Shown in pieces: positions 33,184 to 33,966 of a DNA stretch of 44,738 nt; the stretch's first letter is position 1, and each line of letters begins with the position of its first letter. The position numbers were made by a program, and so were the translations under genes. The notes beneath the pieces were generated by a model. The model was not told where the DNA came from, made no database searches, and saw nothing but the letters and a program-made list of their open reading frames with translations. The DNA lies in the sequence record PP925847.1. One strand, given 5' to 3'. The DNA is from Escherichia phage Zumzum.

Positions 33184-33966
33184 ATGGCTAAAGTCAACCT
33201 GAAAAATGTGCGCGTATGCTTCCTGAAAATTTGGGAACGTGATACCCCTAAACAGGATGGACAAAAACCGGCATACCGTGCCGTGATTCTTCTGGATAAA
33301 GAAGATCCGCAGGTGGACAAAGTGGAAGCGGCAGCGCGCGCAGTGCTCACCGACAAGCTGAAATCCGAGAAGAATGCCGATAAGTGGATGGACCGCCACT
33401 ACGCCCAGGATTCTAAGGAATGCGCAGTGCGCGACGGCGACGAGCGCGATGAAGTAACCGAAGAATTCGAAGGCATGTTGTATATCAACGCCAAATCGTT
33501 CAAACAACCAATCATTCAAACGTCACTCGGCGAGAAGCAGACTGAACAAGGTCTGACCATCGACGGCGACGAGATTGAAGGCCAGGAGATCTACTCTGGT
33601 TGTTATTGCAACGTGTCCCTTGATATTTGGGCGTGGAACAACACCAACGGCAAGGGACTCGGTGCTGGCTTGCTGGGTTTACGCTTCCGTGATGACGGTG
33701 AAGCCTTCGGCGGTGGCGGGTCTTCTTGCTCCGATGAAGACCTGGACAACGACGACGAAGACGAAGCACCGCGCAAGTCCAAAAAGTCAAAACGTCGTGA
33801 TGACGATGATGAAGATGACAAGCCGCGCAAGTCCAAGAAATCCAAGCGCCGCGATGACGACGACGATGAGGAAGATGAAAAACCTCGCAAACGTCGTAAG
33901 CCACGCGATGACGAAGATGAGGACGACGACGAAGACGAAGCGCCACGTAAACGTCGCCGCCGTTAA
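33184..33966 (+). CDS. putative single-stranded DNA-binding protein with a mixed-charge repeat tail (260 aa from ATG at 33184)
   Basis: GAGGA ribosome-binding site; N-terminus MAKVNLKNVRVCF; position between the nuclease and polymerase genes; C-terminal repeats PRKSKKSKRRDDDD. Confidence 0.5.
   Translation: MAKVNLKNVRVCFLKIWERDTPKQDGQKPAYRAVILLDKEDPQVDKVEAAARAVLTDKLKSEKNADKWMDRHYAQDSKECAVRDGDERDEVTEEFEGMLYINAKSFKQPIIQTSLGEKQTEQGLTIDGDEIEGQEIYSGCYCNVSLDIWAWNNTNGKGLGAGLLGLRFRDDGEAFGGGGSSCSDEDLDNDDEDEAPRKSKKSKRRDDDDEDDKPRKSKKSKRRDDDDDEEDEKPRKRRKPRDDEDEDDDEDEAPRKRRRR

Follow-up and report, generated by a model that had tools for sequence, protein, structure and literature searches.

The DNA considered here is the 44,738-nucleotide (nt) sequence of Escherichia phage Zumzum (sequence record PP925847.1), referred to below as the window, and the question that it raises concerns the tail of the SSB, the protein that binds single-stranded DNA, encoded at positions 33184–33966. 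SSBs of bacteria and phages are regarded as defined in part by an acidic tail with a hydrophobic end (PMC5686142), and the acidic-hydrophobic tip is the means by which SSBs recruit their partners. The SSB of the window, which is 44.7 kb of a Dhillonvirus (an E. coli siphophage), departs from this textbook rule in that it has oligo-arginine in place of the tip and, inserted before it, a blocky repeat without net charge. An initial annotation, made from the sequence alone, had likened this tail to the first early protein of the same phage (30301–30819; here called p1) and had suggested that the two have a common interaction mode or have expanded by repeat recombination. What kind of tail is this, how has it come about, and is it maintained by selection? 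Our analyses have identified a tail that varies by whole units in register and is under purifying selection, and we read it, tentatively and with a little less than even confidence, as a repeat-built polyampholyte extension of the canonical acidic tail that would act as a multivalent electrostatic module. The evidence for this reading, and the other explanations that compete with it, are discussed below.

Identification of the SSB and Charge Architecture of Its Tail

The product of 33184–33966 is, as judged by profile, predicted fold and gene context, an SSB of the Enc34/T7 gp2.5 type, and its preference for single-stranded DNA (ssDNA) is predicted. Its residues 3–193 match Pfam PF10991 with 109 bits against a curated cut-off of 26 (E 2.8e-31), PHROG 112 (named "ssDNA binding protein and ssDNA annealing protein") matches it with E 5.5e-55, and its sequence matches in the PDB are 4klk and 4jg2, both DUF2815 structures, and 5odj (Enc34 ORF6). 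The AlphaFold2 (AF2) model, made with 103 homologues, has a predicted local distance difference test score (pLDDT) above 90 for 167 residues, and a Foldseek search with this model returned 5odl (Enc34 SSB with ssDNA; E 1.6e-12), 4klk (1.1e-12), 1je5 (T7 gp2.5; 1.7e-06) and also 4jg2, so that the model has the modified OB fold of Enc34 ORF6 and T7 gp2.5. The start is placed at the ATG at 33184, homologues beginning with MAKVNLK; an in-frame GTG lies upstream at 33163. The gene and the parts of its product are as follows, pN and pS being the proportions of non-synonymous and synonymous differences:

33184–33966, plus strand: SSB gene, 260 amino acids (aa) plus stop, Gp2.5/Enc34 type (DUF2815), with PF10991, PHROG 112 and PDB sequence and fold matches
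33184–33699, plus strand: OB-fold DNA-binding domain, residues 1–172, pLDDT 92–98 per 10-residue block to residue 170, pN/pS 0.057
33700–33732, plus strand: Gly/Ser hinge EAFGGGGSSCS, residues 173–183, where pLDDT drops from 98 to 72–61
33733–33765, plus strand: proximal acidic block DEDLDNDDEDE, residues 184–194, net charge −9, counterpart of the classical tail motif D-x-F/L-x-D-L
33766–33939, plus strand: three internal basic-acidic units, residues 195–252, variable in copy number
33940–33963, plus strand: terminal basic block APRKRRRR, residues 253–260, net charge +6, in the place of the classical acidic-hydrophobic tip

The tail consists of four acidic and four basic blocks in alternation over residues 184–260, as the initial annotation had described it, and the translation quoted there is exact, ending in ...DEDLDNDDEDEAPRKSKKSKRRDDDDEDDKPRKSKKSKRRDDDDDEEDEKPRKRRKPRDDEDEDDDEDEAPRKRRRR. 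The individual blocks are:

Residues 184–194: acidic, net −9
Residues 195–205: basic, net +7
Residues 206–212: acidic, net −7
Residues 213–223: basic, net +8
Residues 224–232: acidic, net −9
Residues 233–241: basic, net +7
Residues 242–252: acidic, net −11
Residues 253–260: basic, net +6

Each junction from acid to base is (A/K)-P-R-K, and the internal units read APRKSKKSKRR-DDDDEDD, KPRKSKKSKRR-DDDDDEEDE and KPRKRRKPR-DDEDEDDDEDE. For residues 182–260 the charged fraction is 0.81, the net charge per residue −0.10 and kappa (charge-segregation index) 0.59, a degree of segregation reached by none of 2000 composition-preserving shuffles, and this tail is the sole segment in the six frames of the window that passes a strict block criterion. 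With 28 basic residues among 79, its overall net charge is −8; in the bookkeeping along the protein, residues 173–193 account for −9 and the 67 residues that follow (194–260) for 0. The proximal acidic block (−9) is retained, and its DEDLDNDDEDE aligns with DFDDL of the family consensus, in which the FGGG motif of the hinge is also conserved.

By AF2 and DSSP the tail has pLDDT values of 49–63 and no secondary structure except one helical turn at residues 184–187, and hence it is predicted to be disordered. A charged single alpha-helix (ER/K motif) was rejected, there being no helix beyond 184–187 and the blocks being 7–11 residues long, Asp-rich and interrupted by Pro. Repeats of the AT-hook, SPKK or H1-like kinds were likewise rejected for the SSB tail, as its junctions are A/K-P-R-K, with no RGRP and no S/T-P; one relative (L003) has S-P-R-K at its first junction. 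An acidic tip with an aromatic or hydrophobic end is not found in this tail, which ends in APRKRRRR without any aromatic residue, and the tip D-D-D-I/L-P-F of bacterial SSBs is absent from it as well. Our full-text literature searches, in which few subscription journals were covered, found no description of an alternating-charge SSB tail.

Tails across the Wider SSB Family

A first search for homologues picked its candidates by shared 5-residue words, a procedure that is biased to query-like tails, and for this reason a search with the OB domain only was run against 1.84 billion cluster representatives. It yielded 1989 hits with E values up to 0.001, and for 149 representatives it was possible to tell where the OB domain ends. 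No basic block is present in 132 of these (89%), and the tails of this majority, whose medians are 22 residues for length and −8 for net charge, bear out the statement that classical tails are acidic; their tips are acidic-hydrophobic in 61 cases, acidic in 9, neither in 62 and basic in none. At least one basic block is found in 17 of the 149 representatives and at least two in 9. When the alternating tail is mapped on a tree of the OB domains, built by the unweighted pair group method with arithmetic mean (UPGMA) and scored by Fitch parsimony, 8 trait changes are required versus 13.5 (minimum 11) for shuffled labels, which indicates that the trait is clustered, yet was apparently gained or lost several times. 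One of the clusters is a clade of enterobacterial phages that includes the window.

In the combined set of homologues, tails with 2 to 4 basic blocks are 43–88 residues long and have median net charges of −6.5 to −9. Of the 389 acid-to-base junctions in the biased set, 371 contain Pro, the usual form being E-(A/K/R)-P-(R/K), as do 36 of the 344 base-to-acid junctions; by eye, an acid-Pro-basic junction is also seen in 14 of 16 unbiased alternating tails, and this directional use of Pro persists in homologues with an OB-domain identity as low as about 30%. Some distant DUF2815 homologues cap their alternating repeats with DDEIPF, DDDDLPF, DDDENPF or DDDVA, and tips of the D-D-D-I/L-P-F type occur on the alternating-repeat homologues P0074, P0083, P0105 and P0109. 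These capped forms suggest that the repeats stand where a linker would, with the proximal acidic motif before them and the terminal tip after them.

Variation in Unit Number among Dhillonvirus SSBs

The SSB region matches about 180 phage records, nearly all of them from Escherichia phages of the genus Dhillonvirus; the highest identity (99.5%) is to vB_Eco_Maverick, and two phages in laboratory use, SECphi18 and SECphi4, are also matched. A scan of viral contigs gave at least 12 loci. The SSB tails of the genus fall into the following forms:

Four block pairs, 256–261 aa: window, SECphi18 and Oekolampad
Three block pairs, 236–247 aa: SECphi4, JL1, BF9, AV129, GeorgBuechner and Envy
Two block pairs, 224 aa: L008
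One block pair, 202 aa: phage welsh, with DEDLDNDDEDE-APRKRRRR only

A 218-aa SSB of the two-pair form is present in the protein collection (P0003). The relatives thus hold 0 to 3 internal units, and losses are always in register. Every deletion fuses one DE(A/K)PRK junction with another, and such junction-to-junction deletions are as expected from recombination between diverged junction repeats; recombination between two 45-nt copies at 33732–33776 and 33906–33950 would give a tail like that of welsh. All 20 of the intact Dhillonvirus tails examined have the proximal acidic block and the (A/K)PRKRRRR end. The four-pair form (260/261 aa) is dominant among public sequences, one of its clusters holding 537 member sequences versus 1 to 7 in the clusters of the shorter forms. 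Alignment of homologues, proposed in the initial annotation as a check on whether repeat number varies, has revealed gain and loss in register among close relatives, for p1 as well as for the SSB, and the in-register length variants of both proteins fit the suggested expansion by repeat recombination.

Age of the Repeats, Reading Frame and Selection

The tail had been described as encoded by near-tandem DNA repeats at 33760–33960. The repeat is clear at the level of the protein, whereas at the level of DNA it is weak and degenerate: Tandem Repeats Finder reported no 54- or 60-nt array over the SSB tail, and a repeat search in the tail DNA found a 54-nt pair with 76% identity and a 45-nt family with 60–78% identity. 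Units 1 and 2 are separated by 9 synonymous and 5 non-synonymous differences (pS 0.87, pN 0.115), and PRKSKKSKRR is identical in the two despite 6 synonymous changes. The saturation of synonymous sites in units that have kept their peptide indicates that the tail units are old duplicates and not a recent microsatellite expansion. A hypermutable simple-sequence (contingency) repeat was rejected in view of the 76–78% identity of the units, the lack of a Tandem Repeats Finder array and the in-frame nature of natural length variants, to which the exception is one deposit with a 2-nt insertion resembling a sequencing error.

The tail is under purifying selection and, among the forward frames compared, in the annotated frame only. 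Between the four equal-length orthologues used for these estimates, pN/pS is 0.073–0.074 for the tail and 0.057 for the OB domain, and third codon positions hold 64 of the 84 nucleotide differences in the tail. The same nucleotides in the other two forward frames give a pN/pS of about 2.9, from which we conclude that these frames are non-coding. Additional open reading frames (ORFs) cross the tail, viz. a forward ORF at 33575–34021 and reverse ORFs at 33512–33979, 33603–33890 and 33787–33972, and they are open because of its GAN/AAR/CGN codon composition. The condition under which the initial annotation would have been given up, namely that the repeats be absent or unconserved in close relatives and that truncating the tail have no effect, has received a divided answer, as welsh is without internal units and the repeats are under strong purifying selection where they are present.

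That all forward frames and three reverse ORFs are open across the region, and that the database entries P0005 and P0008 read the tail in another frame, could be taken to mean that a low-complexity stretch has been mis-assembled or translated in the wrong frame. The probability of such an artefact is negligible, and we consider it excluded by the presence of the same tail in more than 150 independent phage records, by the restriction of selection to the annotated frame and by the record MZ234008.1, in which the original frame is intact downstream of a 2-nt insertion. In this record (L024, phage vB_EcoS-22664B1, locus about 4600–4615), an inserted GC at the start of the tail gives a Thr/Met/Lys-rich reading. 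The old frame downstream being perfectly intact, the insertion is most probably a sequencing error, and the frameshift was accordingly dropped as a sign that the tail is dispensable. The metagenomic protein P0008 has a frameshift like that of MZ234008.1.

The same observations bear on another explanation for the variation in unit number, according to which the internal units are a tolerated spacer, a neutral and highly soluble segment that separates the acidic block from the oligo-Arg end, whose number drifts while only charge balance is selected. This account is consistent with the natural series of 0 to 3 internal units, which includes the propagated phages welsh, SECphi4 and SECphi18, with the net neutrality of the extension past the proximal block, and with the similar behaviour of the linker of p1, which ranges among homologues (proteins of 115–180 aa) from almost absent to about 75 aa. 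However, a pN/pS of 0.07 is as low as that of the folded domain, and the identity of PRKSKKSKRR at saturated synonymous sites is not what a pure spacer would usually lead one to expect, as such segments tend to conserve composition and not sequence. The predominance of the 260/261-aa form (537 cluster members versus 1 to 7) and the persistence of the directional Pro junction to about 30% OB identity also argue against it, and we consider a tolerated spacer possible, but rather unlikely.

Likeness of the SSB Tail to the First Early Protein

PHROG 3127 matches p1 with E 2.4e-53, and p1 has no Pfam match. A Foldseek search of the p1 model against the PDB returned nothing below E 0.7, and PADLOC gave no match for either the SSB or p1. 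In the AF2 model, a helix at residues 2–28 and a disordered region at 23–101 (pLDDT 30–46) are followed by helices at 106–168 (pLDDT 82–90), and the layout is that of a conserved N-terminal helix, a charged disordered linker and a conserved acidic three-helix C-terminal domain (net −21). The linker is located as follows:

30394–30606, plus strand: p1 linker, residues 32–102, built of acidic and PAK/KK-rich blocks in alternation, with DE(A/K)PAK junctions and a net charge of −1

Its kappa of 0.44 is reached by none of 2000 shuffles, and its DNA contains a 90-nt repeat in two copies with 82% identity (30417–30593). A p1-like first gene and an alternating SSB tail are found together in Salmonella phage PhiSTP2 (Guernseyvirinae) and in Edwardsiella phage eiAU-183. 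The distant metagenomic phage L016 also has an alternating SSB tail, and its first-gene product matches the C-terminal domain of p1 (hhalign probability 91%, E 1e-06); L017 has such a tail too, and its first gene is p1-like by gene position and architecture only. Judged from such sequence comparisons, p1 is the conserved first gene of a module that comprises the genes for a DUF2800 nuclease, the SSB and a family-A DNA polymerase (PolA).

Several further features of p1 and its relatives were observed. The p1-like first genes lie at 3635–4279 in L014, 3912–4355 in L015 and 8308–8835 in L016, and the set of p1-like products includes proteins P0373–P0388. The C-terminal domain of p1 contains a DEFDDLL motif resembling classical SSB tails, and in the p1 of PhiSTP2 this domain is duplicated. 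An AT-hook-like KRGRPAK is present in the linkers of P0373–P0388 and PRGRGRPP in L017; RGRP is absent from the p1 of the window.

The proposed resemblance between the SSB tail and p1 holds for the alternating blocks and for the D/E-(A/K)-P-x-K junction, and does not extend to sequence similarity (blastp E 0.84, composition-corrected). On these alignments the likeness is compositional and is not one of homology. A recent duplication of, or exchange between, the two segments was rejected, since blastn of the SSB tail against p1 gave only matches of at most 17 nt at 94–100% identity and one of 28 nt at 86%, and the blastp likeness is lost on composition correction. The lengths of the two proteins are weakly correlated among 18 non-independent genomes (rho 0.49, p 0.04, uncorrected for relatedness). 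The common interaction mode that had been proposed for the SSB tail and p1, with compositional likeness as its sole ground, is not supported.

The junction that the two segments share also enters into a second explanation, in which the P-R/K blocks of the tail are auxiliary nucleic-acid-binding arms that contact DNA or RNA and are masked by the acidic blocks until the OB domain engages ssDNA, with a role in annealing or at junctions of single- and double-stranded DNA. Each basic block begins with Pro followed by R/K, the p1 linker has the same junction, and the relatives of p1 have the AT-hook-like motifs KRGRPAK and PRGRGRPP; the name of PHROG 112 includes ssDNA annealing, which fits the annealing ascribed to Gp2.5-like proteins, and the tail-less Enc34 SSB gains binding to double-stranded DNA (dsDNA). 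The AT-hook core RGRP, however, is absent from the SSB tail and from the p1 of the window, the basic charge is offset by acidic charge in the same segment (net 0), and the internal basic blocks can be deleted. Binding arms of this kind are therefore an unlikely explanation for the tail.

Defence Systems That Sense the SSB

The SSB orthologue of SECphi4 is an experimentally confirmed trigger of Retron-Eco8, being toxic when co-expressed and the gene to which escape mutants map, and it is cited as binding the multicopy single-stranded DNA (msDNA) of Retron-Eco8. A Dhillonvirus SSB also triggers type III Sir2-HerA (PMC13434337). The published work on the SECphi4 SSB shows residues 1–186 only, the "flexible C-terminal residues" not being displayed, and the present observations are relevant to work on SSB-sensing defence, in which these SSBs serve but the tail has so far been omitted.

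It is conceivable in this setting that the tail and its length polymorphism help the SSB to evade or titrate SSB sensors (Retron-Eco8, type III Sir2-HerA, Hachiman). The confirmed triggering of Retron-Eco8 and type III Sir2-HerA by Dhillonvirus SSBs places the protein in the right context, and polymorphism between strains is typical of arms-race loci. Nevertheless, SECphi4 and SECphi18 escape Eco8 through T56P, a change within the OB domain, or through mutation of the intergenic region upstream of the gene, none of the mutations being in the tail (Stokar-Avihail preprint supplement), and deletion of the C-terminal tail of T7 gp2.5 leaves Eco8 activation unaffected (PMC13402713). Both results disfavour a counter-defence role, as does selection on the tail that is purifying and not diversifying, and we regard this role as highly improbable.

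A Repeat-Built Extension of the Acidic Tail

In T7 gp2.5 and Enc34 ORF6 the acidic tail folds into the basic groove in which the OB domain holds ssDNA, and competes with ssDNA there; it governs DNA selectivity and the binding of partners. Our preferred reading, put forward tentatively, is that the tail of the window SSB is a selected, repeat-built extension of such an acidic tail. The proximal block DEDLDNDDEDE is the counterpart of the classical tail, and modules are gained and lost behind it in register, as would follow from recombination between diverged DE(A/K)PRK junction repeats. The added acidic blocks may serve as further copies of the groove-binding and partner-binding element, and the basic blocks and the oligo-Arg end as counter-charges for acidic blocks of the same or a neighbouring SSB, for acidic partners or for the DNA backbone. 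While the SSB is free, the tail would neutralise its own charges and stay compact; binding of ssDNA would open it, so that it could link adjacent SSBs or partners, leading to cooperativity or local condensation, with the number of modules tuning reach and valency.

A number of considerations weigh against this reading. In the AF2 model the tail is not docked onto the OB domain, welsh propagates without internal units, so that these are dispensable for growth in the laboratory, and a length polymorphism of zero net charge is equally expected of a tolerated spacer. The pN/pS estimates come from four orthologues only, the junction statistic is inflated by the bias of the homologue set, and the whole account is built on sequence and predicted structure. 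A bolder proposal may also be considered, in which alternating tails are a distinct and recurrently evolved class of SSB tail, electroneutral, with a directional acid-x-Pro-basic junction and, in enterobacterial phages, with an oligo-Arg cap instead of the acidic-aromatic tip that most SSBs have, that would act as an electrostatic velcro for the association of SSBs with one another (perhaps also with p1) in a condensate-like replication focus, the repeat number being a tuning knob; this we hold to be distinctly improbable.

As a protein this SSB is unremarkable, and experiments already make use of it. The value of its tail lies in the natural in-register series of 1 to 4 block pairs, which provides a clean system for relating charge patterning to autoinhibition, to cooperativity or condensation and to the choice of partners, in a group that is well sampled and tractable (SECphi4, SECphi18 and phages of the BASEL collection are in laboratory use).

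Gene Neighbourhood and Other Observations

The SSB gene is located in a replication region with the following features:

27430–29694, minus strand: helicase-primase
Between helicase-primase and p1: divergent control region
30301–30819, plus strand: p1, 172 aa, PHROG 3127, the gene with which the rightward replication operon begins
Between p1 and the DUF2800 nuclease gene: small ORFs
31428–32858: DUF2800/PD-(D/E)XK nuclease
33090–33118, plus strand: candidate sigma-70-like promoter TTGACC-17-TAAATT just 5' of the SSB gene (9/12 in a consensus scan, a pattern match only)
33986–34008, plus strand: hairpin and T-run after the SSB stop, a probable intrinsic terminator
34193–36484: family-A DNA polymerase (PolA)

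The order of DUF2800 nuclease, SSB and family-A polymerase genes is also found in L014–L018, which places the SSB in the same module there. The RNA fold of the hairpin (33975–34015) has an energy of −18.5 kcal/mol and a z-score of −4.5, none of 200 shuffles being equally stable, and the site equivalent to 33986–34008 carries a "terminator" annotation in MK373789.1 and MK373791.1. In SECphi4, one of the mutations that allow escape from Retron-Eco8 lies between genes, upstream of the SSB gene, which fits a promoter of its own for this gene. The candidate promoter, the 3' hairpin and this upstream mutation suggest that the SSB gene is transcribed as a separate unit.

Some other features of the region and of the window were also observed. 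At 34081–34086 (ORF 34025–34171) the window has a run of six G, compared with five in six related Dhillonviruses, and this shifts the frame of the small gene that separates those of the SSB and the polymerase; the product in the relatives has 56 aa and reads MRIKASEVKVGMQVWSKLLGEYFTVAEIR..., and the window reads ...KLLGGIFHSCRDS. Either the homopolymer was misread in sequencing or the gene has truly been inactivated. The DNA polymerase I coding sequence of phage AV129 (L023, OR352959.1, locus 4993–8181) has 3189 nt versus 2292 nt in the window and other relatives, which points to an inserted element, for instance an intein or a homing endonuclease. Elsewhere in the window, Tandem Repeats Finder reported two arrays. 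The one at 10377–10541 has 2.1 copies of a 79-nt unit, with 82% matches and many CCCGC/GGGAC motifs, and the one at 44107–44210 has 3.4 copies of a 30-nt unit.

Comparison with Known Systems

The Enc34 ORF6 SSB (Enterobacter/Hafnia phage; 5odj, 5odk, 5odl) shares its family (PF10991/DUF2815), its fold and its replication module with the SSB of the window, and its tail, like that of the window, is disordered and acidic at the start. The Enc34 tail has Asp or Glu at 16 of its last 29 residues, and the paper describing it reports no alternating basic blocks, whereas in the window 67 residues of net charge 0 follow the acidic start and the end is oligo-Arg. When the acidic tail is removed, the Enc34 SSB binds dsDNA as well as ssDNA (PMC5686142). 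T7 gp2.5 (1je5) belongs to the same SSB superfamily by fold, and both it and the Dhillonvirus SSB are sensed by Retron-Eco8. Its acidic tail regulates DNA binding and contacts the polymerase and the helicase; this tail is purely acidic and ends in ...EEADEDGDF with a C-terminal Phe, in contrast to the RRRR end of the window tail, which has no aromatic residue.

E. coli SSB shares the same logic of an OB core, a disordered linker of variable length and a terminal interaction tip (DDDIPF). Its linker is Gly/Gln/Pro-rich and weakly charged. The composition of this disordered linker tunes condensation (PMC12143593) as well as cooperativity. The E. coli protein belongs to another OB family and has another oligomeric state, and the window tail differs from its linker and tip in being 81% charged and blocky and in having no acidic-aromatic tip.

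Disordered regions of eukaryotic nucleolar and chromatin proteins such as nucleolin and nucleophosmin also alternate D/E tracts with K/R blocks, have highly segregated charges, are near-neutral and are linked to nucleic-acid-dependent condensation. The window tail resembles these eukaryotic blocky polyampholytes without homology to them, and it is short, bacterial-viral and carried on an OB-fold SSB. The SSBs of SECphi4 and SECphi18 are orthologues, with 90–96% DNA identity over 33640–34010, a segment that runs from the last part of the OB domain through the tail to 44 nt beyond the gene. With three block pairs in SECphi4 and four in SECphi18, their tails have the same construction as that of the window, with no difference in kind.

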